A stretch of 64,000 bases of DNA, from assembly GCA_026004495.1 (NCBI GenBank), contig BPJG01000001.1, forward strand, positions 496,527 through 560,526. The letters are read 5' to 3'. The notes below the pieces were generated by a model. That model made no database searches, was not told the DNA's origin, and worked only from the letters and a program-made list of their open reading frames with translations. This DNA is from Candidatus Parcubacteria bacterium (GTDB lineage Bacteria > Patescibacteriota > Minisyncoccia > UBA6257 > HR35). The translations under genes and the position numbers were made by a program. Positions 8,945 through 63,953 of the stretch are shown piece after piece (position 1 is the stretch's first letter; each line of letters starts with the position of its first letter).

Positions 8945-9253
8945 ATGAAAAACAAGTTAGATTTATATTTCGATTTAATAATTATCTTAATTATTTGGTT
9001 AAGTTGGTTATTTGTGATTGATTTAATCCAGGTTAATCAAGTTATTTTTTATTATAAATATTATCCTGAAAAAATAATTTTATCAACTAAAGATATATTA
9101 TATATTTTCCCTATTGCTTTAACTATTTTTATAGTTTATAATTTTATTTTAAGGTTTTTTATTCTAAAAAATAAGATTTTGGATATAGTAAATTTTTTAA
9201 TAATTATATTTAATTTTTTAATTTTAATTAAATTAATTTATTTAAATTTTTAA
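8945..9253 (+). CDS. Small hydrophobic membrane protein (hypothetical)
   Basis: 102 aa with three predicted TM segments. It starts 1 nt after the murG stop. AT-rich genomes generate ORFs of this kind easily. Confidence 0.3.
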   Translation: MKNKLDLYFDLIIILIIWLSWLFVIDLIQVNQVIFYYKYYPEKIILSTKDILYIFPIALTIFIVYNFILRFFILKNKILDIVNFLIIIFNFLILIKLIYLNF

Positions 9254-9264
9254 TAAATCAAATT

Positions 9265-9567
9265 ATGATAGCAATAATTGAAACAGGAGGCAAGCAATAT
9301 TTAATTAAAGAAGGTAGTATTATAACTACTAATAAAATTGAGGGTGAAGAAATAATTTTTGATAAAGTTTTGCTTTTTTATGATGATAAAAAGCTTTTAA
9401 TAGGCAAACCCTATCTTAATAGTATTTATGTTAAGGGTAGAATACTTAAGCAGATTAAAAACAAAATTCATGTTATAAAATTTAAACCTAAAACTCGTTA
9501 TAAGAAAAAAATAGGATATAAAAATTATTTTTCTCAAATTAGAATAGAAGAAATTAACTTTTCTTAA
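9265..9567 (+). CDS. rplU: 50S ribosomal protein L21
   Basis: 100 aa. MIAIIETGGKQY...KFKPKTRYKKKIGY matches L21. No rpmA follows it. Confidence 0.85.
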   Translation: MIAIIETGGKQYLIKEGSIITTNKIEGEEIIFDKVLLFYDDKKLLIGKPYLNSIYVKGRILKQIKNKIHVIKFKPKTRYKKKIGYKNYFSQIRIEEINFS

Positions 9568-10096
9568 AATATCTTTTAACAATATAATCAGGTAGAATTC
9601 CTAATTTAAAATATTTTATTTTAATTTTTGGGGGCAAAAATCTAAATTCTCTTATTTTTTTTCGACAAATTTTTGAACCACAATTACATTTTATTGACCA
9701 AGAATCTTTATACATTGTTGTTGAATAATCATAAGTTATTTCCTCTCCCTGTTTTATATTTTTTAAAGCTATTAAAATAACCTTGTTGCCATTGATATAA
9801 ACATAAGAATTTGGATCGCAAGAATGATTTATAAAATCATCATATATTTTTTTATTTTTACCCGTACCAACAATAAATATATCTTCATCAATTTGAATAG
9901 AGTAATCATCAATTATTTTTTTTATTTTTTTGCTTTTTATTTTATTAAAATGATCTCGTGAAATTATTTTACCTATAAATTCTAAAATAATATCATTTTT
10001 TTTAAAATCTTTCTTTGCAAATAAACCCAAGCCATTATTACTCTTTTTTACTTCAAGATTTTTGTAAAATTCTTTATTAAAATTTATTATTTTCAT
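9554..10096 (-). CDS. SET-domain protein (putative protein-lysine methyltransferase)
   Basis: 180 aa. GLGLFA (GxG), NHSCDPN, EEITYDY and a post-SET-like CNCGSKICRKK Cys cluster. It overlaps the 3' end of the reverse gyrase gene by 20 nt on the same strand. Confidence 0.7.
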   Translation of the reverse strand: MKIINFNKEFYKNLEVKKSNNGLGLFAKKDFKKNDIILEFIGKIISRDHFNKIKSKKIKKIIDDYSIQIDEDIFIVGTGKNKKIYDDFINHSCDPNSYVYINGNKVILIALKNIKQGEEITYDYSTTMYKDSWSIKCNCGSKICRKKIREFRFLPPKIKIKYFKLGILPDYIVKRYFKKS

Positions 10097-13000
10097 TTAA
10101 AAATAATCTCTTAAATAATATTGCTAAAATATCTTGATAGTTTAATTGTTTTTTTTCAATGGCATCCATCTTTTTTTCTAATTCTTTAGTAAAATTTTCA
10201 TTTATTATATCAGAAAATGATGAATTTAGGTAGTTATAAATATTTTTACCTTGATTAGTAGGTATAAGATATCCCTTTTTGATTATGATATATCTTCGTT
10301 CAATTAATGTTTGGATAATACTCGAGTAAGTAGATGGTCTACCTAAATTTTCTTTTTTCATTTTATCAATTATTGAAGCATTGGTATAAAGTAATTCTTT
10401 AGAAAATCTATTAATTTTTAAATCATTAATAACAAATTCACCTGGTTGAATTTTAAATGGATAAATATAAGAATATATTTCATTAAAACCATTTTCAATT
10501 ATTTCTGTTATTACTTCTTTTTCATCTTCAATTAAAACTTTGTTTTCAGATATTAATTTAAATGATATTAATGTCTTTTTTATTTTTATCGCTTTACATT
10601 GTGATGCTATAAATCTTTTTAAAATTATACTATATAATTTTAAATGTTTATTAGAAAATAATTCATTTTGGTTAATAATAGACTGTTCAATAACTTCCTC
10701 AACAGATAAAGCTTTTGTTGGCCTGATACATTCATGCGTTCCTGGTTTTCCCCAACTTCTTTTTTGACTTAAATGAAGCTTATCTTTTTTATTAAGAAAT
10801 TCATAAGCTATTTCTTTACCTAAATTAGATACATAAGTTGAATCAGTTCGATGATAAGTTATTAAACCTCTTTCGAATAAATCTTGAGCTAAGGACATAG
10901 TTGTTGGTAGATCAAATTTAAGTAAATCCCACGAATATTTTAATAAATCACTTGTTTGAAATGGGGGTGGGGGACTAACAATTTCTATCTTAGATTTTAA
11001 AAATTGAATTCTAACTAATAAGTTATTTTTTAATTTTCTAATTTTTTTTACTAAATCAATATTTTCAGTTTGTATATCATAATACTGGTTACCGAAGAAA
11101 AATCTAATTGAATAAATTTTATTTACTCTTCTTTCTAATTCTCTACTAATAATCCAACCTAAAACAGGAGTTTGAACCCTGCCTGCAGATAAATTTAAGT
11201 TTTTAAATTCTTTTTGTATTTTTTCACTTAAAGAAAAACCTATCCAACGATCAGCAATTCTTCTTGTTATTTGAGCACAAACTAAATCTAAGTTTAATTT
11301 TCTTGGTTGTTTAAATCTTCTTAAAAATTCCTCTTTAGTAATTTCATGAAGTTCAATTCTTTTAATATTTTTATTATAGGGATATAGATAGATAAATAAA
11401 TCAAAAGCAATTTTTTCTCCTTCAGTATCTGGGTCAGTAGCTAAATATATTTCTTGAACATTATTAGCTAAATTTTTTAAGATTTCAATTAAAAATTCTT
11501 TATTCAAAAAATTATTATTATTACAAATAGGACAGATATTATCATCAATATCTATATGACGTTGACAATTCAAACATATTTTTAATGGCTCAAATATTGG
11601 TAAAAATTCTTGGTTATCTTTTTTTATTCCATAATAACCCTCTTTATAAACCAAATCGACAAAATGTCCTAAGGTAGCAATAATATTGATTAAATAATTT
11701 CCTAAACTTACTTCATATACCCAAAAATTACGATATATTTTTTTAGCAGGTTTACCAAAAAAATTAGCAATTGTTTTAGCTTTGGTTGGAGATTCAACTA
11801 TTATTAACGCAGTTTTAACTTGATCTTTGGGTAATATTTTTTCTTCCGTTATTATCTTTTTTATCAATTCTCGATCTTTATCAACAAGTTCAATAGTTTT
11901 TTTAAATTCTTCTTTGCATTCTTTGATATTCATAAAATTTATTTTGTAGCCTATTAATTTCAGTTTATTTTTTAAATTATCAAAAATTTTTTTATCTTCA
12001 ACTAATAAAATACTTAATCCTTGGGTTAATCCAAGAGGGAATAATCTTGATGTTCTACCTGAAGCCTGAATATAACCCTTAGGATCAGAAATTAAAAGAA
12101 AAAATTTATCATTTTCTTTAATTACTTTTAAATTTTTATCTTTTTCTATTTTTTCGAAGAAATTTTTATCTTGGAATAATTTTCTTAATTTGTTTTGTAT
12201 TAATTCAATTTTGTTCTTTAAATTTTGATTTCTTAAAATACTTTCTTCGTTTAAAAAACTATATTTTTTTAAAAATTTTATGTCTTTAAAAAGATTATTA
12301 TCTTCTAAATATTGTTGAAAAGTTAAAATCATCATTAATAAAATTCTAGGTGTGTAAGTTATGGTTAGTGGTATTTTAAATTTAGGTATCCCTAGAAAGA
12401 TAGCATAGCGAATAACATGAGGTAAATCTATTCCTCTGGTTAATGGATTTCGAACATTTGAAAAACCAACGACAACATCGATTTCACCATTTTCAAATAA
12501 TTTTATATTTTTAGAATTAAATTTTTCATAGGATATAAATTTAATATTATTTTTTTTTAAATAATTAAAATATTTAAGTAAATCTTCTTTATTAAAATCA
12601 TCAGCCAAGAATACAAAACCTCCTTTTTTTAAATATTTTAGCCATTCAATTGATTTTTTAAATAATTTATCTTTTGAATTTACTTTATCATAGAAATCTA
12701 CAATATTTCTTAAATAAGTATTAGAATTTCCTATTTCAAAATTTAATAGTTCTCTAAATAAATTAATCCTTTTTGTTCTAGGAGTAAGAGTAGCAGAAGC
12801 TATAATAATTTTTCCTTTATTTGATAAATTAATATTTTCCTTAAGTTTTTCGCTCAATTGGTAATCCTTTTTTCTTTTTGAATCTATTATTTTTATTGTC
12901 ATCTCAATATCATTATTGCTGAAACCAATTAGTTGTAAAACTTTATCAATGTTTCTAGGTTGTCTTATCATTGAATCAGCATCGTCAATATAAACTAAAT

Positions 13001-13595
13001 TAAAATTTTTAGGTAGAAGATCAAAATTTTTATGTAAGAATTGGGTGGTTGTAATTAAAATATCATAGTTATTATTGCTAATTTCAATTTTATCTTCGGG
13101 TTTTTTAATAGCTAAGATTTTTATTTCTTTATTTTTATTAAATAAATTAAATTTTTTTTCAATTTCACTAACTAAAATTTTTGTTGGTACCAGATAATAT
13201 ATTTTGTTTTGCTTTAAGATTTCAATATTAAAAAGTGAAAATATTATTCCAAAAGTTGATTTACCAAAGCCTGTGGGAGCAATTATACTGAAACTTTCAC
13301 CCTTTAAAGCTTTCTTTGCCCAATATAGTTGTAAATTAAAGGGTTGATAATTTAATGTTTTTTTAAAATACTTTTTAAATAAAAACAGATCTTTTTCTAT
13401 TTTACAAAAAAAATAACTTTCCCTTAAATCTTGACAATTTTTTGATTTCAAGAGTAATTTTTGATAATTTAATCCAAATTTTCTATAATCATTTAAACAC
13501 TCTTGAAATTTAAGTATTTCTTCAATATTAGCTCTATTTTTATCTAAAGGACAAATTTTAAGATATTCCGCATTCAGTTTATTAATTTTATTCAT
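10077..13595 (-). CDS. rgy: Reverse gyrase (SF2 helicase-like domain fused to a type IA topoisomerase)
   Basis: 1172 aa. N-terminal Cys-rich segment. Helicase motifs I APTGFGKSTFG, II YIDDADS and III SATLT. TOPRIM LIIVESPTKAKTIANFFG and DxD LATDPDTEGEKIAFDL. Topo IA active-site Tyr in GLITYHRTDSTYVS. The base composition is host-like. Confidence 0.85.
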   Translation of the reverse strand: MNKINKLNAEYLKICPLDKNRANIEEILKFQECLNDYRKFGLNYQKLLLKSKNCQDLRESYFFCKIEKDLFLFKKYFKKTLNYQPFNLQLYWAKKALKGESFSIIAPTGFGKSTFGIIFSLFNIEILKQNKIYYLVPTKILVSEIEKKFNLFNKNKEIKILAIKKPEDKIEISNNNYDILITTTQFLHKNFDLLPKNFNLVYIDDADSMIRQPRNIDKVLQLIGFSNNDIEMTIKIIDSKRKKDYQLSEKLKENINLSNKGKIIIASATLTPRTKRINLFRELLNFEIGNSNTYLRNIVDFYDKVNSKDKLFKKSIEWLKYLKKGGFVFLADDFNKEDLLKYFNYLKKNNIKFISYEKFNSKNIKLFENGEIDVVVGFSNVRNPLTRGIDLPHVIRYAIFLGIPKFKIPLTITYTPRILLMMILTFQQYLEDNNLFKDIKFLKKYSFLNEESILRNQNLKNKIELIQNKLRKLFQDKNFFEKIEKDKNLKVIKENDKFFLLISDPKGYIQASGRTSRLFPLGLTQGLSILLVEDKKIFDNLKNKLKLIGYKINFMNIKECKEEFKKTIELVDKDRELIKKIITEEKILPKDQVKTALIIVESPTKAKTIANFFGKPAKKIYRNFWVYEVSLGNYLINIIATLGHFVDLVYKEGYYGIKKDNQEFLPIFEPLKICLNCQRHIDIDDNICPICNNNNFLNKEFLIEILKNLANNVQEIYLATDPDTEGEKIAFDLFIYLYPYNKNIKRIELHEITKEEFLRRFKQPRKLNLDLVCAQITRRIADRWIGFSLSEKIQKEFKNLNLSAGRVQTPVLGWIISRELERRVNKIYSIRFFFGNQYYDIQTENIDLVKKIRKLKNNLLVRIQFLKSKIEIVSPPPPFQTSDLLKYSWDLLKFDLPTTMSLAQDLFERGLITYHRTDSTYVSNLGKEIAYEFLNKKDKLHLSQKRSWGKPGTHECIRPTKALSVEEVIEQSIINQNELFSNKHLKLYSIILKRFIASQCKAIKIKKTLISFKLISENKVLIEDEKEVITEIIENGFNEIYSYIYPFKIQPGEFVINDLKINRFSKELLYTNASIIDKMKKENLGRPSTYSSIIQTLIERRYIIIKKGYLIPTNQGKNIYNYLNSSFSDIINENFTKELEKKMDAIEKKQLNYQDILAILFKRLFLNENNKF

Positions 13596-13675
13596 TCAAA
13601 TTTTATTTAAATTTTAAATTATTTTAAAATTTAGTTTATAATTATAATATAATCTAAAAATTTTTACTATTAAAA

Positions 13676-14482
13676 ATGAAAAAAATCAAGAATTTAAAAT
13701 TTAATGATCCATATAAAAACAATCCCTTGAATATTACTTTAGTTCCCATAGAAAGTTTAGAGGTAATTTCTTACCAAAGAAAACCTAGCCAATATCATAT
13801 TAAGCATTTAATTAATTCAATTGAAAGAATTGGTTTTATTGTTCCTCTGATAGTTGTAGCTAGAGAAGATAGATATATTATTATAGATGGACAACACAGA
13901 TTTCTAGCAGCTAAAGAATTAGGAATAAATAAATTACCAGTAATAATTGTTCCTGATTATCTAGCTAAATTAATGATTAATTTTAATATTGAAAAAGAAT
14001 TAAACATTAGAGAAAAATCACATGTTGCCTTAGCTGTTTATCAGGAATATCTACAAAATAAACCTGATATAATTGAGTCTGATCCTGAAATAATAGATGC
14101 CTTAGAGCAAGCTTATTATATAACTTTAGGTATTGCTTACCAAAAATCAGAAAAAGTAGCAGGTAGTTCATTTGAATCTATTTTGAAAAAATGTGATTTC
14201 TTTTTAGACTTTAAAATTAATGAAGCTTATAGTCTAAGAGAAAAAAGGGCAGAAAAAATTTTAATAGCTAATAGTTTAATAAAAGAAATATCTCAAAAAC
14301 TAAAAGAAATGGATAAATGGCATCCTTATATTTATAATCAAATTATTTCTTGGGCTAATCCTTATAAAAAGAGAAGATTGCCTACTGAATTTGATGATTT
14401 ATTTAATGAATTAATAGATAATTTACAAACAGCCAGAGAAAAACCTCAAATAGTTATTACAGAAAATAAATTATATTTTTAA
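13676..14482 (+). CDS. ParB/Srx-fold DGQHR-domain protein (DndB-like family), stand-alone
   Basis: 268 aa. The N-terminal ParB-like nuclease fold carries the literal motif IIDGQHRF plus upstream ISYQRKP. The C-terminal half is unassigned. Confidence 0.5.
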   Translation: MKKIKNLKFNDPYKNNPLNITLVPIESLEVISYQRKPSQYHIKHLINSIERIGFIVPLIVVAREDRYIIIDGQHRFLAAKELGINKLPVIIVPDYLAKLMINFNIEKELNIREKSHVALAVYQEYLQNKPDIIESDPEIIDALEQAYYITLGIAYQKSEKVAGSSFESILKKCDFFLDFKINEAYSLREKRAEKILIANSLIKEISQKLKEMDKWHPYIYNQIISWANPYKKRRLPTEFDDLFNELIDNLQTAREKPQIVITENKLYF

Positions 14483-14683
14483 TTTTTCGAAGTTAGACTT
14501 TAAAAGTCGCTTTCGACATTTTGTGCATACCCTAATCCTTTTTCTGTTTGGAAGTTTTAACCATTGAATATTAGGATATTGGAAATAGGTAGTTGTTGGA
14601 TTATATTTACTTCTTGTTTTAATTCTTTTTGTTGTTTTAAATCTACCCTTTTGACAAATTGAACAAAAAGATTTTTTACTCAT
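14471..14683 (-). CDS. rpmB: 50S ribosomal protein L28
   Basis: 70 aa. CSICQKG...TKR...NP...RVCTKCRKR follows the L28 pattern C-x2-C...KRR.NPN...RVC.C. Confidence 0.65.
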   Translation of the reverse strand: MSKKSFCSICQKGRFKTTKRIKTRSKYNPTTTYFQYPNIQWLKLPNRKRIRVCTKCRKRLLKSNFEKLKI

Positions 14684-15980
14684 TTTCTATTGTTATTTTA
14701 ATTAAAGCATTATTAACTTCAATATCATCTAATTTTAAATTATTTTTTAAATAGTTCAAGATTTCATTTTTTTTATTTTCATTTGATTCTTTAATTATAA
14801 TCAGCAATTTTTTATTTTGAAAATCTAAGCCTTCAATTTGGTATTCTTTAAGATTATTTAAAATTTCCAACTTTTTGTAGATACTTAGATTATCATTAAT
14901 TTTTGTTAAATTTGTTAACAGTGATTTTAATTTTTCTAAATTTTGTGACTCATTTTTAATCGTCGAGATTTCATTAGTTATTTTATTTTTTTCTTTATTA
15001 AGATAATTATTAAGCAAGATTAAACCAGTATTTATTGTCAGGCCTAAAAAGATGCTTAAAATTAACCAAATTTTTAAACTGTTATTTAAATTATAAAGAT
15101 TATATTCTTTCTCAAAATTATAAATGTTTAAATTTAATTCAGAAGATAAATTGTCTTTTAAATTTTTTATAATATTTAAGGAAGCAATTTCAATTGTATT
15201 TAATTTTAATTCTTTATTAACATTTATAATTTTTAAATTTTCAATTTCTATATCTAAACTTTCGTCATTTAAATTGAAAATTATATCAATAGGGTTTATA
15301 AGTGACCTCATAGAAGAAATTATCATTCTTTCTATTATTTCTTTTTTATTATCGGAATCAATATTTTCTCCTAAAATATTTGTTATAAATCCATTTTCAT
15401 ATGTACAGATAGTTAATATGTTATCAGCTAAGATAGATATTAAATAACTTTTATCAAAAGCTAATGCATATTTTTCCTTTATAAAATTCAATATTGGAAA
15501 AACTATTAATTGAAATTTTAAGGGAATAAAATTATTTAGTAAAAGTTGGTTATTTATAATTTCTAAAATTTCTTTTTCAAAAAATAGAACCAAGGTGTTT
15601 TCATAAAGATTAGGATTAAAATAACTTTTCCATAAGTATCTTTCAATGTTGATAGGTAATTCTTCTTTAATTTTATTTTCTATAAGATTTTTATTTTTTT
15701 CCTTATTCAACTCGGGAATATTAAATCTTTGAATAAAAAATTTAGGAATATTTAAAATGATATTTATTGGTTGAGGTGGATAAGTTTTTTTGATGGTTTT
15801 TAAACTTTCTTCTATATTTTCTTTTACAATCAATTGCGAATCACTGATAAAATTTTTATTAAATTCTATCTTATTAATAATTTTTAATTCTTTTTTTGTT
15901 TTTTTTATTTCAATTAAGGTTAATTTATTGGCCGAAATAGTTAAAACTAAATTTTGGGGTTTAATAATAAACTTCTTCAT
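14676..15980 (-). CDS. Hypothetical membrane protein, possibly a PilM/PilN-like fusion
   Basis: 434 aa. N-terminal soluble domain with a PilM/FtsA-like start LVLTISANKLTLIEIKK. One TM segment near residue 300, then a coiled-coil region as in PilN. The assignment is weak. Confidence 0.25.
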   Translation of the reverse strand: MKKFIIKPQNLVLTISANKLTLIEIKKTKKELKIINKIEFNKNFISDSQLIVKENIEESLKTIKKTYPPQPINIILNIPKFFIQRFNIPELNKEKNKNLIENKIKEELPINIERYLWKSYFNPNLYENTLVLFFEKEILEIINNQLLLNNFIPLKFQLIVFPILNFIKEKYALAFDKSYLISILADNILTICTYENGFITNILGENIDSDNKKEIIERMIISSMRSLINPIDIIFNLNDESLDIEIENLKIINVNKELKLNTIEIASLNIIKNLKDNLSSELNLNIYNFEKEYNLYNLNNSLKIWLILSIFLGLTINTGLILLNNYLNKEKNKITNEISTIKNESQNLEKLKSLLTNLTKINDNLSIYKKLEILNNLKEYQIEGLDFQNKKLLIIIKESNENKKNEILNYLKNNLKLDDIEVNNALIKITIENE

Positions 15981-31559: not shown

Positions 31560-33287
31560 TTATTTATTCTTTTTAAGTTGTTGCAAAAATTTTTTAAAAG
31601 TGAGTGTATTGAGAATATCATTTTTATTTGCCCATCCACGACGTGCTTGACTAACTCCTAAATCCAAAAAACTTAAATGTAAAACTGAATGAGCATCAGT
31701 ATTAATAATCATCTTTACTCCTTTTTCAACGCATTTTCTTATATGCTCATCTTTAAGATCTAATCTATCTGGATAAGCATCAATTTCTAAAATAGTATTT
31801 GTTTTTTTAGCATAATCAATAATTTCATCAATATTAATTTCATAAGCAGGTCTTTTATTAATTATTCTACCGGTTGGATGAAAGATACAATCAACATTTG
31901 GATTAGTCATTGCTTTTTTGATTCTTTCAGTTTGAATATTTCTTGGTAAATTAAAATGACTATGTACAGCAGCACCAACAAAATCTAATTTTGCCAAAAC
32001 TTCATCTTTAATATCCAAACCACCATCTTTTAAAATATTAACTTCTGCTCCTTTTAGAATTTTTATCTTGCCTTTATATTTTTGATTTAATTTATCAATC
32101 TCAGCCATTTGCTTTAATAATTTTTCTTCATCCAAACCACCAGTCATTGCCAAAGATTTAGTATGATCAGTAATACAAATATATTCCAAGCCAAGTTTAA
32201 TTGCCTCTTCTATCATTTCCTTAATTGAATTTTGACCATCAGTCCAATTTGTCTGAACTTGCAGATCACCCTTAATTGAACCATATTCAATCAACTTTGG
32301 TAATCTTCCTTCCATTGCTAATTCAATTTCGCCTCGATCTTCTCTCATCTCAGGCGGTATCCAATCTAAACCAAGTTTTTCATAAATTTCCTCTTCTGTT
32401 CTGCCGGCAATCATTTTTTCATTCTTGTCAAAAAGTCCATATTCGTTCAATTTCCATCCTTTCTTAATTGCTAATTCTCTCATTTTAATATTGTGATCCT
32501 TTGAACCAGTAAAATAGGCCAGCGCAGCACCAAAATTTTCTTCAGATACAACCCTTAAATCAGCATCGAGCCCAATTTTGAGTCTAACCATAGTTTTAGT
32601 TAGCCCTTGAGCATAAATATTATTTACTTCAGGAAACTTAACAAAATAATCCATTAATTTTTTAGGTTTGTCAGAAACAGCCAAAATATCAATATCACCA
32701 ATTGTTTCTTTTTTTCGACGATAAGAACCAGCAGGCATAACCTCTTTAGCTAATCCACTTTCTTTTAAATAATTTACTAATTCTTCAACCACAGGAATAA
32801 TAAAACCCAAAATCGCTCTTCCTCCTCCTTGCTTAAAAAATTCAATCCCTTTTAAAATTTTCTCTTCACTTTTCTCTCCAAATCCGGGTAGCCTTCTGAT
32901 TTTATGCTCTCGACAAGCCTTTTCTAAATCATCAATTGTTTTAATTTCCAAAGCTTTATAAAGCTTATAAACAATCTTTGGTCCAACACCTTCAATTGAA
33001 GTTAATGTTTCAACATCAACTGGCACTTCTTTTTTTAATTCTTCTAATTCTTTAATTTTGCCAGTTTTCAAATATTCAATAATTTTTTCAGCAATTGACT
33101 CGCCAACCCCAGGCAAGTTTTTCAATCCTTCTTTCCCTCTTTTTTTGATAAATTCTTCAATGTCTTCATCTAAAGCTTCAACTGAATAAGCAGCCCTTTC
33201 GTAAGCTTGAGGTTTAAATTTAATTTCCTTCATATCTAAATAAATTGCCATCATTCTTAAAAGCTTTGCTATTTCAGGATTTTTCAT
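31560..33287 (-). CDS. polX: Family X DNA polymerase with a C-terminal PHP phosphoesterase domain
   Basis: 575 aa. PolX N-terminus NPEIAKLLRMMAIYLDMKEIKFKPQAYERAA, HhH GVGESIAEKI, nucleotidyltransferase GSYRRKKETIGDIDIL and PHP motifs HTHT-like CITDHT...HSH. Confidence 0.8.
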   Translation of the reverse strand: MKNPEIAKLLRMMAIYLDMKEIKFKPQAYERAAYSVEALDEDIEEFIKKRGKEGLKNLPGVGESIAEKIIEYLKTGKIKELEELKKEVPVDVETLTSIEGVGPKIVYKLYKALEIKTIDDLEKACREHKIRRLPGFGEKSEEKILKGIEFFKQGGGRAILGFIIPVVEELVNYLKESGLAKEVMPAGSYRRKKETIGDIDILAVSDKPKKLMDYFVKFPEVNNIYAQGLTKTMVRLKIGLDADLRVVSEENFGAALAYFTGSKDHNIKMRELAIKKGWKLNEYGLFDKNEKMIAGRTEEEIYEKLGLDWIPPEMREDRGEIELAMEGRLPKLIEYGSIKGDLQVQTNWTDGQNSIKEMIEEAIKLGLEYICITDHTKSLAMTGGLDEEKLLKQMAEIDKLNQKYKGKIKILKGAEVNILKDGGLDIKDEVLAKLDFVGAAVHSHFNLPRNIQTERIKKAMTNPNVDCIFHPTGRIINKRPAYEINIDEIIDYAKKTNTILEIDAYPDRLDLKDEHIRKCVEKGVKMIINTDAHSVLHLSFLDLGVSQARRGWANKNDILNTLTFKKFLQQLKKNK

Positions 33288-33390: not shown

Positions 33391-35388
33391 ATGAATAAAT
33401 ATTTTAAAAAATTATCTCTAATTTTGTTAATTTTAATTACCTTTTATACTTTAATATTTATTAAACAAATTTATTCTCAAAATAACATTCCTATTTGCAG
33501 TTCACCTAATAATTTACTTATTTTACCCGGTAATTGGGAGGGCAATAGAATTGTGATGACTTCTGCTACTGGTTCTTTAGGTCTCACTGATTTATCATTA
33601 TCAACTTCATCTAGTGGAAATATTTTAAATACTTCTAATACTTGGTTAATTTTAAATAAGGGTTTGATTTTATCTGGACCCTCATATGGTTTTAATAATG
33701 CTGGAGCAATTTATTTTAGGGATTTAAGTGAGGCACGTACAATCAGTAGTGGGGGAAATACACGTAATTCTTATTCTGAATTTATAATTTATGTTCCTAC
33801 TACTACTAATAATTTAGTTTTCTTCTATAAAAATGCAAGTGAAACAAGTTCTGGAACTGTTTTAACTATTTCTACTTCTGGAGATATTATTTCATCAGGG
33901 AATATAATTTCTAGTGGTAGGCAAGGTGTCATTACTAATAACTTATTTTCACTTAACAATATTTCAATAGGAACTTCTTCTGCCTTAGATAAGCTTTATC
34001 TTTATGCTACTAGCGATCAATACATAAACTTACAATCAGCTAATAGAGGAAATTTAAAAATTGGTAGTTTGTTTTCTAATTCTGAAGCAGTAATTAGATT
34101 TAAGGAAATTCTTAAAATTTTTTACTCAAATAATTCTTTACCAGTTTTAACGATTAATAATAATGAAAGAGTGGGAATAAATACTTCTACTCCATATTCA
34201 ACCCTTGATGTTAGAGGCGATATTAGAGCCTCTCAAGATATTATTACTAATGGTAGATTTTGTTTAGGTAGTAACTGTATTACAAATTGGCCTTCAGCTG
34301 GTGGAAATATTTGGGGTAGTGGTTCGGATAATTATATTCCTCTATGGACTGGAGTTAATAATCTTGTAAATTCAATAATTAAGCAAACCCTATCTGGAGC
34401 AACAAGAACGATAGAGGTTATTAATGGTTCTATAATAGCTAATAAATTTTGTTTTAAAACAGATAATAACGATCTATCATGCATTTCAAGCTGGCCATCT
34501 CGACCAGCTGTAGCTCATTTTTATCGTTATATAGTTGGTCATGAATATTGGGAAAATTTTTTAACTAACCTTATTAATTCAGAACCTAATGTTTCAGGTA
34601 TAGATCCTTATATTAGACCTAGAAATGGTAATTATAATGAAAACATAGGTAAGGGCTATCCTTATTTAAGCCTTCATGATATTATTAATAGAATAGGAAT
34701 TGATCCTGATAATCAATTTGCTACTAAATGGTTTATCTTAGGTTACTCTTATCGACAGCCATATACTAATGTACCTACGGCTTTATTTATTGAAGAAGGA
34801 GATAATATTAATCCATGGAAAAGATACACTAAAACTTCATCTTCTCCAGGAGGTCTTAATCCCAATAATTCATCAGATGTTTTGGTATATTGTCATTATA
34901 ATGCTCCTAGCGGAGCTATTTATACAACCTCTAATAAACAAGAGTGTGATCAAATTAGAAATGGAAATCTTCAGGGTTATAGCATCAGGAGTTATACTTA
35001 TGCAGAAAAAAATTATGATATTAGAGGTTATGTAGCTTTAGATTTAAGACTTGAGCCAGCTAACCAAAGAACTGTTTGCACTAAAAGAGATTACTTAGAT
35101 TCTATTTCAATAGCAAGTTGGGGTAATACAAGTGTTATTAATTTAAGGATTAATGACTATAGATATCCTAATTTAAATAATGATCCTTGCGTAGACATAA
35201 GCAATCGAAGACCCAATCTTCATTCTGTAATAATGGGTAGATTTAGGGTAAGACCCTATCCAACCTCAAATACTGCTTCTTCAGATTATATTCCACAAAC
35301 GAGCATTGCTTCTTTTTTAAATAATAACAATACTGATTTTAAAGTTGTGATTAAATCTTTAGGGGTAGTGGAATTAAGAAATTATTAA
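33391..35388 (+). CDS. Large secreted, Ser/Thr/Asn-rich fibre-like surface protein (hypothetical)
   Basis: 665 aa. N-terminal signal/TM, repeated IISSGN motifs, and a segment ERVGINTSTPYSTLDVRGDI resembling the VGIGTTSP..LDV.G repeat of tail-fibre-like and surface-fibre proteins. Confidence 0.4.
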   Translation: MNKYFKKLSLILLILITFYTLIFIKQIYSQNNIPICSSPNNLLILPGNWEGNRIVMTSATGSLGLTDLSLSTSSSGNILNTSNTWLILNKGLILSGPSYGFNNAGAIYFRDLSEARTISSGGNTRNSYSEFIIYVPTTTNNLVFFYKNASETSSGTVLTISTSGDIISSGNIISSGRQGVITNNLFSLNNISIGTSSALDKLYLYATSDQYINLQSANRGNLKIGSLFSNSEAVIRFKEILKIFYSNNSLPVLTINNNERVGINTSTPYSTLDVRGDIRASQDIITNGRFCLGSNCITNWPSAGGNIWGSGSDNYIPLWTGVNNLVNSIIKQTLSGATRTIEVINGSIIANKFCFKTDNNDLSCISSWPSRPAVAHFYRYIVGHEYWENFLTNLINSEPNVSGIDPYIRPRNGNYNENIGKGYPYLSLHDIINRIGIDPDNQFATKWFILGYSYRQPYTNVPTALFIEEGDNINPWKRYTKTSSSPGGLNPNNSSDVLVYCHYNAPSGAIYTTSNKQECDQIRNGNLQGYSIRSYTYAEKNYDIRGYVALDLRLEPANQRTVCTKRDYLDSISIASWGNTSVINLRINDYRYPNLNNDPCVDISNRRPNLHSVIMGRFRVRPYPTSNTASSDYIPQTSIASFLNNNNTDFKVVIKSLGVVELRNY

Positions 35389-48905: not shown

Positions 48906-49973
48906 TTAATCGAATCGCAGGACTTTCCTGACTTCGCTAAGGGTTTCGATGGCGTTTTCTCTAGCCACCTTAGCCCCCTCTTCCAGGGCGGAAGAAATGT
49001 ACGACGGGTCGTGCAAAATCTCAGCCCTCTTCTCCTGAAACTCACTGAGGAAGTTCTGAACGATGCGAGTCAGAATTTGTTTAAACTGACCCATTACTGG
49101 TTTGCCACTCTTATGTTCCTGGATAACGGCATCCACCTCATCGCGTTCCGATTGGGTTTTTGCCAGCCCCTTGGCAATTAAGATATGGCTTTCCAGTTTC
49201 TCGTTCATTACTCCCTCAAATGCAGTCTCAGCGGCTTTGATCTTGTTGGCAACCGTCTTTAGGTCATCCGTCAGGAAAATAGCACCGCCAGGATTACTTT
49301 TGCTCATCTTGCCCTTTCCTCTCAGGGCAAGAATACGTAGCGACTTAACCTGCAACACCTGAGGAATTGGAAAAATCTCCCCGTACTTCTTGTTGAACCT
49401 GCGAGCGAGGAGACGCGTAACCTCCATGTGTGCGAGCTGATCTTCTCCCACCGGTACCCTTTTGGCTCTGTTCAACAAGATGTCAGCAGCCATTAGTACC
49501 GGATAAAGAAGAAGGAGGGCATTAGCAGTTTCCGGCCGTGCGTTGTTCTTGAGCTTATCCTTGAGAGTCGGTACTCTCAAGAGTTCAGCCACAGAAACAA
49601 GCCTAGACAGAATCGCGGTAAGCGTTGTTACCTCTCCCGCTATATCCGATTGGAGATAGATCTTCGCTTTCTGCGGATCAACTCCAAGCGCGATGTAGTC
49701 AGCTACGACTCCGTGGATGTACTGCCTCACAGTATCCGGTTCGTTGTCCGTGATCGCGTGCAAATCGGCAACGAACACAACCGGAGACACGCCCTGTGTT
49801 TGAAGTTCAACAATGGGAGCTACTGCCCCCAGGTAGTTGGCGACGGTCAAGTCGCCAGTGGGCCTGATGCCCGTCAGTAACTCAACCTTGTAATCCATGG
49901 TAGACGCCTCCTTTTTTAGGGTACTATCCATACTATAATCCTTTTTCCATTTTTTGCCAAGATCATATGTCAT
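48906..49973 (-). CDS. trpS: Tryptophanyl-tRNA synthetase, compositionally foreign (about 50% GC by eye)
   Basis: Class-I aaRS. TGDLTVANYLGA is a HIGH-region variant typical of TrpRS, and KMSKS is present. The likely true start is the internal MDYK Met near 49898, which has a GGAGG RBS 8 nt upstream, giving about 331 aa. The gene is far more GC-rich than anything around it. Confidence 0.85.
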   Translation of the reverse strand: MTYDLGKKWKKDYSMDSTLKKEASTMDYKVELLTGIRPTGDLTVANYLGAVAPIVELQTQGVSPVVFVADLHAITDNEPDTVRQYIHGVVADYIALGVDPQKAKIYLQSDIAGEVTTLTAILSRLVSVAELLRVPTLKDKLKNNARPETANALLLLYPVLMAADILLNRAKRVPVGEDQLAHMEVTRLLARRFNKKYGEIFPIPQVLQVKSLRILALRGKGKMSKSNPGGAIFLTDDLKTVANKIKAAETAFEGVMNEKLESHILIAKGLAKTQSERDEVDAVIQEHKSGKPVMGQFKQILTRIVQNFLSEFQEKRAEILHDPSYISSALEEGAKVARENAIETLSEVRKVLRFD

Positions 49974-50023
49974 ATCTATTTTTGTTTGATTACACTAATA
50001 ACGACCGTGTCTTTTATGTCTAA

Positions 50024-50230
50024 TTATATTCTAAACGTTGGCCTAAAAGGTTTTAATATACCCTTAACATCATAACATCTCAAAACCATACTGGAAACTC
50101 CGAATATTTTGGATACCTGTTTTATTGTCAGTAATTCTGGGAATCTTTCTGATTCCATAATCGCTTGCTCTAAAACTTTATTATTTTTATATTTATTATA
50201 ATAAAATTTTGCCAAGTTTAATTCAACCAT
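50024..50230 (-). CDS. Excisionase/AlpA-like (MerR-superfamily HTH_17) small DNA-binding protein
   Basis: 68 aa. LTIKQVSKIFGVSSMVLRCYDVKGIL fits the Xis/AlpA HTH. Its first roughly 55 nt lie inside IR1-R, and a truncated inverted copy lies in IR1-L. Confidence 0.5.
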   Translation of the reverse strand: MVELNLAKFYYNKYKNNKVLEQAIMESERFPELLTIKQVSKIFGVSSMVLRCYDVKGILKPFRPTFRI

Positions 50231-50397
50231 TCAACTAGCAGACAAGGGAGAATCTGGGGGGAAATTTTTGTCCGCTTGCTCGTTTTGGGCGGTGGGTGGG
50301 TGTGCGTCCGCCGAAGGCGGACGCATAGGTTAGATTTCGGCATCGGGATTTTATTCAAAAAAGGTTCGGATTTTGTCCAAAAGATACCGCCATTTTA
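50174..50397. repeat. IR1-R: right copy of the 224-bp inverted repeat
   Basis: See IR1-L. Its outer end is ...CCGCCATTTTA, the inverted att-like 11-mer. Confidence 0.85.
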
Positions 50398-50521
50398 CGA
50401 TTTCAGAGCTTTGAGAAGTTCTTGCCTCGCCTTCGCTTCGCTCGGGCTCGGCAAAAGCCACGATTTTATACGGATTTTTGAAATAAAAAAAACAATTTCT
50501 GCCCGCTCAAAAGAAAGTTCG
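50387..50521. repeat. IR2-L: left copy of a 135-bp inverted repeat, about 95% identical to IR2-R
   Basis: Its reverse complement matches 52001-52135. It is GC-rich (CTCGCCTTCGCTTCGCTCGGGCTCGGC). It begins with the same CCGCCATTTTACGATTTC terminus that ends IR1-R, so the two IR systems abut and share 11 nt. Confidence 0.8.
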
Positions 50522-50620
50522 CCGTGCGAAGCACGGGCAAAATAAAATTTTGCAAAACAATCTTTTTTCTCTCGCTTCTGGCGAAAAGCAAAGCGATAAT
50601 TTAATTTTGGTAAAACAAAT

Positions 50621-52056
50621 ATGACAAAAGAAAATTCAAAAAGAAAATTTTTCATTTATGTCCGCAAGTCAACTGACTCAGAAGACAGACAAGTAAGAAG
50701 TATTCAGGACCAAATTGCGGAACTCAAGGAATTGGGGAAAAAAGGAAAATTTAGAAATCGTTGATATTTTGATTGAAAAACAAACCGCTAAAATTCCCGG
50801 AAGGCCAGTTTTTAATGAAATGCTGAAAAGAATTCAATCAGGCGAAGCGTCTGGATCCTGACCGGCTTGCTCGTAATTCTATTGACGACGGGCAAATTAT
50901 TTATCTTTTGGATACCGAAATTATCAAAGAGTTAAAATTTCCTACTTTTTGGTTTGAGAATACGCCACAAGGAAAGTTTATGTTATCTATCGCTTTTGGC
51001 CAATCAAAATACTATATTGATAATCTTTCAGAAAATATCAAAAGGGGACATCGGCAAAAATTAAAACAAGGTTTATGGCCCCAAATGGCGCCTCTTGGTT
51101 ATCTCAACGATACAAAAACAAAACAAATTTATGTTGATAAAGAAAAAGCACCGCTTATTAAAAAGGCGTTTGAACTTTACGCTACTGGAAAATATACCTT
51201 GAAAGAAATTAGAAAAATCATTAACGATTTGGGGTTGCGGGGAAGAAAAAATAAACCTCTTTCAACTTCAAATTGTTAATATCTTTTACAAAATCCTTTT
51301 TATTACGGAGTGATGAGATACAACGGCGAATACTACGAAGGAAGGCACGAACCGATTATTACAAAGAAACTTTTTGATGATGTTCAGGAAGTAATGAAAC
51401 AAAAATCAAAACCGCAAAAACCAGACAAAATGAAATTTTTTCTTTATCGCGGATTATTTCGTTGTGGAGAATGCAGTTATGCCATTACCGCGGACAGAAA
51501 AATCAAAAAGAGCGGGAAACAATACACCTATTACTATTGCACCAAGAAAAACCCAAATCATAAATGCTCGCAAAATGTTTTTACCAGAGAAGAAAAAATT
51601 TTATCCCAAATCAATGAAGTGCTACAAAAAGTTTCTTTATCTAATGATTGGGCTGATTGGATGATAAAAAAACTTGAAAGAGAAAAAGAAGAAAAAGTCC
51701 AATCATCACGCTTTTTTGCTCAAAAGATTGAAAGCGAAATAAAGGAGATTGACGAGAAGTTGGAAAAGTTAATGACTGCCTACCTTGAAAATGCTTTGTC
51801 TTTAGAATAATACCGAGAAACCAAAAATAAACTTATTAATCAAAAACAACTCCTGAAAGATAAACTAATCGCTTTTGAGCAAAAAAGCAATAATCGGTTC
51901 GAACTCGCCATAAAATTCATAAATTCCTTAAAACAAAGCCAGATTATCGCTTTGCAAGAAAATCACGAGCAAAGCCGGGATTTTCTAAAAAAGATTAGTT
52001 CGAACTTTCTTTTGAGCGGGCAGAAATTGTTTTTTTTATTTCAAAAATCCGTATAA
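50621..52056 (+). pseudogene. Large serine recombinase (resolvase domain, recombinase domain, zinc ribbon, coiled coil), disrupted
   Basis: N-terminus MTKENSKRKFFIYVRKSTDSEDRQVRSIQDQ with the catalytic Ser motif. One frameshift in an A6 run near 50738. A second indel near 50850, upstream of DRLARN. Two in-frame TAA stops, at 51277 (...STSNC*YLLQNPFYYG...) and 51808 (...LSLE*YRETKNKL...). CGECSYAITADRK...YYYCTKKN is the zinc ribbon. The last roughly 19 codons lie inside IR2-R. GC is intermediate between host and trpS. Confidence 0.65.
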
Positions 52057-52135
52057 AATCGTGGCTTCTGCCGAGCCCGAGCGAAGCGAGGGCGAGGCAA
52101 TACCTTCTCAAAATCATGAAATCGTAAAATGGCGG
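52001..52135. repeat. IR2-R: right copy of the 135-bp inverted repeat, abutting tRNA-Ser
   Basis: See IR2-L. It ends in TAAAATGGCGG, whose last 6 nt are the CCGCCA 3' end of tRNA-Ser on the minus strand. Confidence 0.8.
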
Positions 52136-52219
52136 AAGGGGTGGGATTCGAACCCACGAGGCCCCAGAAGAGGCCACGGCTCTCCAGGCCGTTCCGTTAA
52201 TCCACTCCGGCACCCTTCC
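52130..52219 (-). tRNA. tRNA-Ser (anticodon GGA) with a long variable arm and encoded CCA
   Basis: Folded by hand. Acceptor GGAAGGG/CCCTTCC, a 3-bp D-stem, anticodon stem ACGGC/GCCGT with loop CTGGAGA, variable arm GGCC-TCTTCTGG-GGCC, T-arm GTGGG-TTCGAAT-CCCAC, discriminator G plus CCA. Confidence 0.85.
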
Positions 52220-61616: not shown

Positions 61617-63953
61617 ATGAAAGAATCAATAAAAATATCAGAAATTACAAACGAATTAAAAAGTTCATACCTTGACTATGCTTTAAGTGTTATTATTTCT
61701 AGAGCTTTACCTGATGTTCGAGATGGATTAAAGCCAGTTCAAAGAAGAATCCTTTATGTTATGAGAGAACTAGGCCTTTGGCCAAATGAAAAATTTACAA
61801 AATGTGCAAATATTGTTGGTAATACTATTGCTAGATATCATCCTCATGGCGACCAAGCTGTTTATGAATCATTAGTAAGATTAGCTCAAGATTTTTCTAT
61901 GAGGTATTCTTTAGTATGGGGCCAAGGTAATTTTGGGTCAATTGATGGTGACCCTCCAGCTGCTTATAGGTATACTGAAGCTAAATTAACTCCTATAGCC
62001 GTTGAAATGCTTGCTGATATAGAAAAAGAATCTGTCGATTTTAGGTCAAATTATGATAATACGAGAAAAGAACCAGTAGTGCTTCCATCTAAGATACCTC
62101 AACTTTTAATTAATGGAACCTTAGGTATTGCTGTCGGAATGGCTACCAATATTCCTCCTCATAATTTAACTGAAGTGAGTAATGCAGTCAAAAAATTAAT
62201 CAATAATCCCGATATTTCAATAAAAGACTTGATTCAAATTATAAAAGGACCTGATTTTCCTACTGGAGGGATTATTTATGGCAAGAAAACACTTTTTGAG
62301 GCCTATAGAACTGGTAGAGGGAGTATCGTTATTAGAGGGAAGGTTAAAGTTGAAGAAACAAAAAGAGGTAATAAATATTTAGTTATTACTGAAATACCTT
62401 GGCAAGTTAATAAAGCAGAATTAATTCGTCAAATAGCAGATTTGGGTTTAAATAAAATATTACCTCAAATTAAAGAAGTTAGAGATGAGTCAAATAGAGA
62501 AGGAATTAGAATAATAATTGAATTAAGCGATAAAGATGATAGATTAATTCATAATACAATTAATAAAATTTATCGCTTGACAGATTTACAAAAAAATTAT
62601 TACTTTAATTTAATTGCTTTAGAAAATGGAATTCAGCCAAAATTATTTAATTTAAAAGATTTACTTCTTAATTGGATAGATCATAGAAGAGAAATAATTC
62701 GTCGTCGAACTAAATACGATTTAGATAAGACAAAAGAAAGAATTGAAATTTTAGAAGGTTTTAAAAAGGCTATTAAAAATATAGATTTAGTTATTAAAAT
62801 AATTAAAAAATCAATCGATAAACAAACAGCTAAAAAAAATTTAATGGTTAAATTAAAGATAAATGATAGACAAGCAGAGGCTATTTTGGAAATGCCTTTA
62901 AGGTCATTAACTTCTCTAGAAACTAAGAAAATCATTGAAGAATTAAATGAAAAATTAAAACTAAAAGCAGAATTAGAAACGATTCTTAAATATCCTAAAA
63001 AAATTGATGAAATTATTATTAGAGAAACTGATGAATTAATTAAAAAATTTGGTGATGAAAGGAAAACTGAAATAATTGATGAAGATTTAAGTATAACAAA
63101 AGTAGAAGAGGAAGTTATTAATGAAGATATTTTATTATTAATAAACAACAAGGGTTTAGTTAAATCATTCGCTATAAATACTTCTATAGATAAAATATTA
63201 AAAAATAAGGATGAGATTGGGAAAATAGTTATTGCCAATACTCAAGATAAATTATTAGCTTATTCTCAAAATGGTAAAATTTATACTATTTCGGTAAATG
63301 AATTTTACAATACAAACAAATATTTAGAATCAACAATAATATTGGATAAGAATGATCAATTAAAAGATATCTTAACTTATAAAAATAAAAAATATATTCT
63401 TTGCTTAACTAAATTTGGTTTGGGTAAAAAAATTAAACTTGACGAAGTTATTAGTAATAGAAAAAGTGGAGTTCAAATAATTAAATTAAAAGATAATGAT
63501 AGTTTGATAAAAACATTAGCAGTTGATGATGAGCCAATAGCTATTTTTACTAAAAATGGTTCTGCTTTAGGTATAAAAGATCAAGTTCCAATTCAAGGAA
63601 GAGCTTCAGCTGGAGTAAGGTTAATTAAGCTTTCCCAGAACGACAATGTTTTTAATATTTCCGTTGTTAATAAGAATTACGTAGTTGTAATTTTTTCAAA
63701 TGGTTATATAAAAAAGTTTTCTGTTAAAGAGCTTAATTTTCAAAAAAGAGGTGGTAAAGGTATTAAAATATTTGAAAATAAAGATAAGTTTGGAGAATTA
63801 ATTTTTGTTGATTTATTAAATAATGATGATAAAATTTTATTAGTTAATGAAAAAATGGAAACCATTTTAGTTAAAGATATTAAAGAAGTAAAAAGAATTA
63901 ATCAACCTATTAAAATAGTCGATCTCAAAATTAATTTAGTTAATACAATTTAA
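61617..63953 (+). CDS. gyrA: DNA gyrase subunit A (or ParC); type IIA topoisomerase A subunit
   Basis: 778 aa. [23 protein letters not shown] and the active-site [10 protein letters not shown]. The C-terminal beta-pinwheel is shorter than in many GyrA proteins. Confidence 0.8.

Follow-up and report, generated by a model that had tools for sequence, protein, structure and literature searches.

A reverse gyrase gene overlapping a SET-domain methyltransferase gene in hot-spring Patescibacteria: probably a lineage-specific adjacency rather than a dedicated module

Introduction

Does the overlap of a reverse gyrase gene with a gene for a SET-domain lysine methyltransferase mean that DNA topology and protein methylation are coupled, or does it reflect ordinary gene packing in a small genome? 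The question is raised by a stretch of 64,000 nucleotides (nt), referred to here as the window, from a Candidatus Parcubacteria bacterium of the candidate phyla radiation (CPR; GenBank assembly GCA_026004495.1, contig BPJG01000001.1, positions 496,527 to 560,526 of the forward strand), in which the 3' end of the reverse gyrase gene (rgy) runs into the 5' end of the SET gene. An initial annotation of the window took this arrangement to suggest a coupled module of DNA topology and nucleoid-protein methylation. Our analysis indicates that the pair probably represents two independent enzymes of known kinds, encoded in a tight two-gene predicted transcription unit, and not a dedicated module. The following features are central to the argument (aa, amino acids; ORF, open reading frame):

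10077–13595, minus strand: rgy, reverse gyrase, 1172 aa (TIGR01054; Pfam DEAD, Toprim and Topoisom_bac)
9554–10096, minus strand: SET and post-SET lysine methyltransferase, 180 aa (PF00856, fold, motifs)
10077–10096, minus strand: stretch shared by the end of rgy and the start of SET, 20 nt, in different frames (ORF coordinates)
9265–9567, plus strand: rplU (ribosomal protein L21), convergent with SET (PF00829, E=5e-25)

Results

The rgy-SET junction

The TAA stop codon of rgy lies at 10077–10079 and the ATG of SET at 10094–10096, which gives the 20-nt overlap; the ORF coordinates, the overlap and the native composition are all as the initial annotation had them. The same strand and the overlap make co-transcription plausible, the strength at which we hold what had been stated there as a fact. 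The two genes would probably be co-transcribed in this lineage from the promoter region shared with a divergent ParB-like gene, and would then probably be co-expressed. On the far side the predicted unit is closed by rplU, with which the 3' end of SET shares 14 nt. A scan of positions 9000–14800 returned no terminator-like sites but is uninformative in DNA of 23% GC, and a promoter scan of the same interval, with 69 promoter-like sites against 49 expected, was discarded on the same ground. The overlap had also been taken as a sign of shared function. However, in another CPR lineage (locus L178) rgy overlaps the unrelated gene for arginyl-tRNA synthetase (ArgRS) by 14 nt, and an overlap with the downstream gene is therefore ordinary packing in streamlined genomes and carries no functional signal.

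The SET protein

The SET ORF is real and not a frame artefact. It matches PF00856 with E=2.2e-22 and 79.9 bits (cutoff 22.4), residues 22–125 covering profile positions 1–105 of 105, its motifs are invariant among 66 homologues, and its AlphaFold2 (AF2) model reaches a predicted local distance difference test score (pLDDT) of 92.5 and a predicted template modelling score (pTM) of 0.87. The motifs comprise G22-L-G24, N90-H-S-C-D-P-N96, E118-E-I-T-Y-D-Y124 and C137-N-C139-x4-C144, with N90, H91, S92, C93, P95, D123, Y124, C137, C139 and C144 invariant in the 66 homologues. Thus, the GxG and NHSCDPN motifs and the post-SET cysteine cluster stand as first described, while EELTYDY was a small misreading of EEITYDY. 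The post-SET CxCx4C zinc cluster (C137, C139 and C144) is completed by C93 of the NHSC motif and aligns with the post-SET region of MLL1. The closest sequence matches in the PDB are the SET domains of MLL1, MLL3, MLL4, NSD, ASH1L and SETD2 (E=4e-19 and weaker), and Foldseek matches the model to MLL1, MLL3, MLL4, ASH1L and NSD1 with E=1e-12 to 1e-10 and template modelling (TM) scores of 0.57–0.74. In addition, the C-terminal extension (approximately residues 148–180) forms a conserved two-helix tail with the pattern F-x-Y-L-P...K-Y...P-x-Y-I. Judged by family profile and predicted fold, the ORF encodes a genuine SET-type lysine methyltransferase; it is 100% identical to GIW65978.1, annotated as 'SET domain-containing protein-lysine N-methyltransferase', and its family is common among CPR bacteria and among archaea, DPANN included.

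From what is known of the family, the enzyme would transfer methyl groups from S-adenosylmethionine to lysines of probably basic or DNA-associated proteins, and one or more such proteins would be its most likely substrate. Two small stand-alone prokaryotic SET lysine methyltransferases act on chromatin or nucleoid proteins in vitro: Go1-SET of Methanosarcina mazei methylates MC1-alpha, and cpnSET of Chlamydia pneumoniae methylates Hc1 (PMC3980110). The window protein is likewise small and stands alone, although its closest solved relatives are the eukaryotic MLL/KMT2, ASH1L, NSD and SETD2 proteins, the likeness to Go1-SET and cpnSET being one of description, and its family differs from these two by the conserved two-helix tail. 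For the nucleoid-protein substrates proposed at the outset, phmmer searches with HBsu, HupA, Sso10b/Alba and Sac7d queries found no HU, Alba or Sac7d-like gene in the 64-kb window, the part of the genome that they covered.

In the closest sequenced relative, KatS3mg095 (locus L006, 8001–8560), the SET protein is annotated with 151 aa, where a 1-nt shift falls in an A8 run and the remainder is intact in the next frame; this could be a homopolymer read error, a fresh pseudogene or slippage. We did not adopt a reading of this 'truncated' protein as pseudogenisation, since the shift lies in a homopolymer with the rest intact and may be a read error.

Extent of the rgy-SET adjacency

In three SET homologues that are 71–85% identical to the window protein, rgy comes directly before SET: the two genes overlap by 17 nt in P0002 (locus L002), are separated by 29 nt in P0008 (L008) and overlap by 4 nt in P0009 (L006). 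No locus found with the adjacency has an rgy identity below 64% or a SET identity below 71%. The loci of this close clade are syntenic throughout, in the order UvrC, SecG, solute-binding protein, two further ORFs and the ParB-like gene, then rgy and SET, then L21, one further ORF, MurG, FtsW, S9, L13, DnaG and RpoD. Since the whole neighbourhood is syntenic, conservation of the rgy-SET pair within it shows no more than close relatedness.

Outside the clade, one archaeal lineage aside, the two genes are found apart. SET homologues of 41–48% identity (P0010, P0012 and P0017) lie in unrelated contexts with no rgy within 8 kb: beside a giant surface protein and a helix-turn-helix gene, beside hypothetical proteins and a histidine kinase, and beside uvrA and uvrB. 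The last of these contexts, encountered once, is a further neighbourhood of DNA metabolism: on a CPR-like contig of 434 kb (L013, 3626–10604) uvrA and uvrB flank the SET homologue (42% identical), and uvrC adjoins uvrA.

From the side of rgy, a SET hidden Markov model (HMM) built from 120 homologues was run on all ORFs of the fetched rgy loci. In the 80 loci that came from GTDB species representatives it detected no SET ORF at a distance of 6 kb or less from rgy; in 80 from JGI metagenomes it found one near rgy in two (L144 and L166), both of one lineage. The 80 metagenome loci listed include four of CPR type, and CPR rgy contexts were sampled at about 20 loci altogether. Among the latter, no SET gene lies downstream of rgy where rgy identity is 61% or less (L095–L097, L016–L019, L052, L099–L101 and L178). 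The gene 3' of rgy is an unrelated ORF with a hydrophobic N-terminus in L097 (61% rgy identity), a cupredoxin gene on the other strand in L095 and a class Ib tRNA synthetase gene in L096. In a large CPR subclade (L016–L019, L052, L099–L101 and L178) it is the ArgRS gene, followed by genes for PAP2 and a MurJ-like flippase. These rgy-ArgRS loci serve as a control, in that tight linkage of rgy to unrelated genes is common. Furthermore, none of the SET matches listed (20 of the 140 were unlisted) comes from the rgy-bearing CPR contigs of 556,583, 247,965 and 348,033 bp, which weakly hints that this SET family is missing from many CPR that carry rgy.

Thus, when the adjacency was followed through related genomes, as the initial annotation had suggested, it was kept only in the close syntenic clade; the proposed coupling of topology and methylation has to be read against an adjacency that is confined to a shallow clade and gone at rgy identities of 61% or less or SET identities of 48% or less.

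An archaeal lineage with SET downstream of rgy

The two metagenome loci that did contain a SET ORF (L144, 5986–13441; L166, 5989–13348) carry, on one strand, rgy, a sugar-nucleotidyltransferase/phosphomannomutase-like gene, SET and a macro-domain gene. The intervening gene is a fusion of 800 aa, and SET lies 2.4 kb downstream of rgy. One of the SET clusters is labelled as a Thermoproteota archaeon, and the N-terminus of this reverse gyrase is partly degenerate (CP-x-D...C-x-x-C). Between L144 and L166, rgy and SET are each 49% identical, and the arrangement has therefore outlasted considerable divergence.

This lineage bears on the alternative that rgy and SET form a functional module in which the SET protein would have reverse gyrase itself or a nucleoid protein as its substrate and so tune DNA topology or protein thermostability at high temperature. 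The same strand, the 20-nt overlap and the lack of any detected terminator-like site between the genes favour such a module, as do the junction kept within the close clade, the independent same-strand gene string of the archaeal lineage at 49% identity and the in vitro activities of Go1-SET on MC1-alpha and of cpnSET on Hc1 (PMC3980110). Conversely, the adjacency is missing from all other usable CPR-clade rgy loci (approximately 11) and, bar the one archaeal lineage, from approximately 150 non-CPR rgy loci. The unrelated contexts of the more distant SET homologues, the lack of listed SET matches from the three large rgy-bearing CPR contigs (weak, with 20 of the 140 matches unlisted), the overlap of rgy with unrelated housekeeping genes in sister lineages and the absence of an HU, Alba or Sac7d-like gene from the window also speak against it, and we consider a module unlikely.

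Independent functions remain the reading that we prefer, and three points weigh against it. Three of the four close-clade lineages sampled retain an overlap or a tight junction; the lineage labelled Thermoproteota has SET 2.4 kb 3' of rgy on the same strand in two genomes at 49% identity; and the SET protein may have a link to DNA topology. A rough estimate, made for a 12-kb interval, genomes of 0.7–2 Mb and about 160 loci, gives 0.3–0.5 lineages with such an arrangement by chance. The two independent rgy-SET lineages are thus somewhat above the chance level, which is suggestive, not significant, and too little to establish a module.

The reverse gyrase

The rgy product scores 1056 bits against the NCBIfam model TIGR01054 'reverse gyrase' (cutoff 471.7; model positions 9–1168 of 1172) and contains the Pfam domains DEAD/ResIII (89–271), Toprim (597–752) and Topoisom_bac (767–1157). 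Residues 48–1164 align to Thermotoga maritima reverse gyrase (PDB 4ddt, E=1.6e-174). By these matches the ORF encodes a full-length reverse gyrase, with a superfamily 2 (SF2) helicase-like N-terminal part and a type IA topoisomerase C-terminal part in one polypeptide; it is 100% identical to GIW65979.1, annotated 'MAG: reverse gyrase 2' (MAG, metagenome-assembled genome) from Candidatus Parcubacteria bacterium. Both rgy and SET therefore come from known families and are already so annotated in public databases.

Conservation of motifs was read from an alignment of 27 members of the clade. The ATPase motifs APTGFGKST (106–114, Walker A), DDAD (204–207), SAT (267–269) and QASGRTSR (510–517) are invariant or nearly so, while the Toprim residues E601 (VESPTKA) and D721-P-D723-x-E725-G-E727 and the catalytic Y914 (ITYHRTDS) are invariant and align to the T. 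maritima enzyme. The second zinc finger, inserted into the Toprim domain, is intact and invariant (C674, C677, C688 and C691) and matches the CxxC...CxxC of T. maritima. In comparison with the reverse gyrases of T. maritima (PDB 4DDT/4DDU) and Archaeoglobus fulgidus (1GKU), the window protein has the same SF2 helicase-like module, latch region, Toprim and type IA domain and keeps Walker A, DDxD, SAT, QxxGRxxR, the Toprim acids, Y914 and the internal CxxC...CxxC, although identity is only approximately 35–39%.

The N-terminal zinc finger, which in work on T. maritima reportedly matters for DNA binding and supercoiling, is different. It is reduced to C15 and C33, with Asp replacing the second Cys of each pair, in contrast to the canonical four-Cys finger of T. 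maritima and A. fulgidus-type enzymes. The window protein thus lacks the CxxC...CxxC of PF17915, while its TIGR01054 score is unaffected. The two-Cys site C-P-x-D...C-x-x-D/H is found throughout the Patescibacteria-type clade, where canonical enzymes have CPNCGG...CxxC. None of the 55 Patescibacteria-type clusters has PF17915 among its listed Pfam domains, and some non-CPR matches lack it too, whereas it is present in most canonical reverse gyrases.

From its family membership, the helicase-like half of the enzyme would burn ATP to drive type IA strand passage, yielding positive supercoils or renaturing DNA and thereby protecting an AT-rich chromosome at approximately 50 °C and above; the protein would on this basis be a thermoadaptive enzyme. 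Its host is a CPR bacterium of 25% GC with a genome of approximately 0.63 Mb, probably from a 52 °C habitat, whereas those of the T. maritima and A. fulgidus enzymes are hyperthermophiles.

Composition and history of rgy

The window has a GC content of 0.251. That of rgy is 0.222, with GC at third codon positions (GC3) of 0.119 (SET, 0.116; native window genes, 0.11–0.18) and a codon-usage distance of 0.45, among the lowest in the window; both rgy and SET have the codon usage of native genes. The homologue search returned 55 Patescibacteria-type rgy clusters (at the 90% identity level) that are 46–76% identical to the window gene, a number that is a lower bound for such clusters in public data, where they are already annotated as reverse gyrases. 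Few of these bear a name; most of the names are Patescibacteria, Parcubacteria, Minisyncoccia or 'bacterium HR35', and one is Deltaproteobacteria. Beyond these 55, identity is 42% or less, the named sequences starting at 39% with Aquificota, Thermodesulfobacteriota, Thermococcus and others. The 55 form an exclusive monophyletic clade when 108 sequences are placed in a neighbour-joining tree, and all CPR-type rgy loci sampled have 22–29% GC.

Such a clade of low-GC genes points to an rgy that is old in the Patescibacteria lineage and has ameliorated fully to host composition, and the possibility of a recent transfer, raised at the outset, therefore does not apply. The gene would have entered a thermophilic Patescibacteria clade early and then been passed on vertically. 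The alternative that rgy was gained horizontally in recent times, or that binning or assembly brought it in from a hyperthermophile living alongside, would have a background in the many horizontal transfers of reverse gyrase phylogenies (PMC6878951) and in the one clearly foreign island that the window does hold, a trpS gene of 49% GC beside recombinase remnants. However, rgy has the GC, GC3 and codon usage of its surroundings, lies on a contig of 634,165 bp amid housekeeping genes and belongs to a Patescibacteria-specific clade of 55 clusters with conserved local synteny. Composition and synteny rule against both origins, which we hold to be highly improbable.

Habitat and gyrase

The initial annotation had treated reverse gyrase in a bacterium of 25% GC as a surprise. 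The exact SET gene and its flanks are present in the read set DRR290133, as is the locus of the KatS3mg095 MAG. The sediment of the Katase hot spring, the source of the KatS3 MAGs, is at 52 °C and pH 7.2, and the paper on it lists small Patescibacteria MAGs with no mention of gyrase (PMC9671151). Reverse gyrase is known in moderate thermophiles growing at 40–60 °C; Catchpole and Forterre (2019) list Thermodesulfovibrio aggregans (60 °C), Nitratiruptor (55 °C) and Nautilia profundicola (40 °C) (PMC6878951). Given the probable hot-spring habitat and the known occurrence of the enzyme at these temperatures, together with the at least 55 annotated clusters, rgy here is expected and no anomaly. Like those hosts, in which bacteria gain the gene by horizontal transfer (PMC6878951), the window host probably lives well under 65 °C. 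Those hosts have been cultured, and the epsilonproteobacterial rgy loci in our sample (Nitratiruptor, L066 and L071) are relatives of two of them; the window host comes from a lineage that is uncultured, ultra-small and probably symbiotic and has a large rgy clade of its own. A study of Kerguelen hot springs implicitly counts one Patescibacteria MAG among rgy carriers (PMC9789041).

CPR-type rgy contigs share metagenomes with archaeal rgy of the hyperthermophile type (e.g. ERZ1669249 and Ga0105162). The proposed check of tRNA composition agrees with a warm habitat to the extent that three window tRNAs, a small sample, have 60–66% GC in a genome of 25% GC, and high tRNA GC of this sort is said to fit a thermophile (reportedly Galtier and Lobry, 1997). 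For the corresponding check on rRNA, Rfam found none in the GC-rich stretch at 48–52 kb, at the gathering threshold or at E<0.1. The IVYWREL fraction of 0.441, which the Zeldovich formula converts to approximately 78 °C, was discarded as unreliable because AT bias inflates isoleucine, tyrosine and leucine.

The window also holds a gyrase-like gene at the position first given for gyrA:

61617–63953, plus strand: gyrA-like, type IIA topoisomerase subunit A (Pfam DNA_topoisoIV and DNA_gyraseA_C)

Its top NCBIfam models are GyrA, with 838 and 825 bits, slightly below the equivalog cutoffs (902 for the 838-bit model), and it passes the cutoff of the subfamily model NF004044 (type IIA subunit A). 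The combination of gyrase and reverse gyrase had been singled out as noteworthy; it is usual in thermophilic bacteria, as in the Thermotoga and Aquifex genomes.

A divergent ParB/KorB-like gene and a conserved palindrome

On the other side of rgy lie the following features:

13596–13675, no strand: divergent intergenic region between rgy and the ParB-like gene, 80 nt (sequence)
13637–13646, both strands: perfect palindrome TATAATTATA within this intergenic region
13676–14482, plus strand: ParB/Noc/KorB-like protein with ParB_N domain and DGQHR motif, 268 aa, divergent from rgy (PF02195, fold)

The ParB-like protein scores 36.6 bits against PF02195 (ParB_N; cutoff 26.3) and 45.1 bits against TIGR00180 (cutoff 58.45). 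Its AF2 model has a pLDDT of 86.6, and the top Foldseek matches in the PDB are ParB, Noc, PadC and KorB, with E=2e-7 and weaker and TM scores of 0.3–0.4. The family is 56–80% identical over more than 120 clusters, with invariant columns at Q-R-K, DGQHR and N-x-E-K-E-L-N-I-R-E that would be the analogues of the ParB nucleotide-pocket boxes. With the CTP-dependent ParB/Noc/KorB DNA clamps and repressors it shares the ParB_N domain, these box analogues and a helical domain that follows, but it is distinct in its score below the TIGR00180 cutoff, the low TM scores and DGQHR in place of GERRxRA. Whereas ParB is encoded in an origin-proximal parAB operon, the window gene is linked to rgy with no adjacent parA.

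The gene stands divergently beside rgy in 10 CPR lineages in which rgy is 51–76% identical, in at least four different outer contexts (loci L002–L008, L015, L017, L018, L095–L097 and L178). On its far side the neighbours vary between a small zinc-ribbon protein with a solute-binding-protein gene, T2SSE/F genes, a Peptidase_M23 gene and other ORFs, and on the rgy side between SET, cupredoxin, a class Ib aminoacyl-tRNA synthetase and ArgRS. The ParB-like gene is thus the most conserved neighbour of CPR-clade rgy, kept through several rearrangements. Near rgy the gene is lacking in L016, L020, L052 and probably L099, as it is in all of the approximately 150 non-CPR rgy loci; its family is larger than the rgy clade, with one non-CPR bacterial member away from rgy.

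The intergenic regions of the pair, 19–168 nt in length, are unalignable apart from TATAATTATA, which is present exactly in five of eight lineages and near-exactly in the other three. In the 64-kb window the palindrome occurs three times, against 1.8 expected. A 13-mer, TATTATAATTATA, which the window has here too, matches just four of 181 fetched loci (two lineages), each time at this intergenic position. The palindrome consists of two overlapping -10-like hexamers, one per strand; it may thus serve as a compact promoter for both directions, as an operator, or as the two combined.

These observations raise the possibility that the ParB/KorB-like protein, and not SET, is the partner of CPR reverse gyrase, a nucleotide-switch DNA-binding protein that would bind TATAATTATA as a candidate operator to control rgy and its own gene, or would act on DNA together with reverse gyrase. 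The pair persists in the 10 lineages despite changes on both outer flanks, the protein is strongly conserved with a predicted fold closest to ParB, Noc and KorB, and the palindrome is kept in otherwise unalignable DNA. However, three or four CPR rgy loci (L016, L020, L052 and probably L099) lack the gene nearby, its family extends beyond the rgy clade to a non-CPR bacterium where it lies away from rgy, it accompanies none of the non-CPR rgy loci, its TIGR00180 score is below the cutoff, and TATAATTATA, being a pair of overlapping -10 boxes in AT-rich DNA, may be no more than a promoter. On balance we regard a partnership as possible, if doubtful.

Next to the ParB-like gene, two genes are encoded that are syntenic upstream of it in most close and mid-distance relatives:

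14471–14683, minus strand: zinc-ribbon protein, 70 aa, 31% Lys+Arg, CxxC...CxxC (weak likeness to bL28, PDB 5v7q, E=0.4)
14676–15980, minus strand: 434-aa protein (no Pfam or NCBIfam match)

Other features of the window

Two further regions lie away from the rgy locus:

33391–35388, plus strand: 665-aa ORF (no Pfam or NCBIfam match)
48906–52219: compositional island with trpS (TIGR00233, 265 bits) and serine recombinase fragments

The 665-aa ORF adjoins the gene for a PolX-type polymerase (31560–33287; DNA polymerase beta domains and PHP). In the island, trpS has 49% GC and a GC3 of 0.56, against a genome GC3 of approximately 0.13, and beside it a large serine recombinase is left in two fragments (PF07508 and PF13408), which abut tRNA-Ser(gga) at 52130–52219. 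The island looks like what is left of a decayed integrated element that carried in a foreign Trp-tRNA synthetase. This GC-rich stretch at 48–52 kb was also considered as rRNA and rejected, as Rfam found none and it is accounted for by the foreign trpS island.

Discussion

We consider it probable that rgy and SET have independent functions and that their adjacency is specific to one genus- or family-level lineage of hot-spring Patescibacteria. The position of SET 3' of rgy would follow lineage-specific gene packing in a streamlined genome of approximately 0.63 Mb. A reading that joins all three genes would make rgy the core of a chromatin or topology unit, in which the ParB/KorB-like protein binds the TATAATTATA promoter and regulates or recruits reverse gyrase, a SET protein, added to the rgy transcript in one genus, methylates this enzyme, the ParB-like protein or a different nucleoid protein, and the recurrence in the Thermoproteota-labelled lineage represents a convergent coupling of positive supercoiling with lysine methylation; such a unit appears to us quite improbable.

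As first proposed, the pairing does seem to be undescribed, in that no paper in the searchable literature, outside which most subscription journals lie, joins reverse gyrase with a SET domain; within the same scope, neither the occurrence of rgy in CPR and its degenerate zinc finger nor the ParB-like neighbour and the rgy-SET linkage is discussed in any paper that we found. Were the functional pairing nevertheless true, it would be the first link of a hallmark thermophile enzyme to protein lysine methylation in bacteria. The ParB/KorB-like gene with its conserved palindromic promoter is a better candidate than SET for a regulator or partner of rgy. The Patescibacteria reverse gyrases, having lost half of the N-terminal zinc finger, are a natural variant worth assaying, and the entrenchment of an ameliorated, monophyletic rgy in ultra-small CPR bacteria of springs at approximately 50 °C matters for the use of this gene as a temperature marker in ancestral reconstruction.

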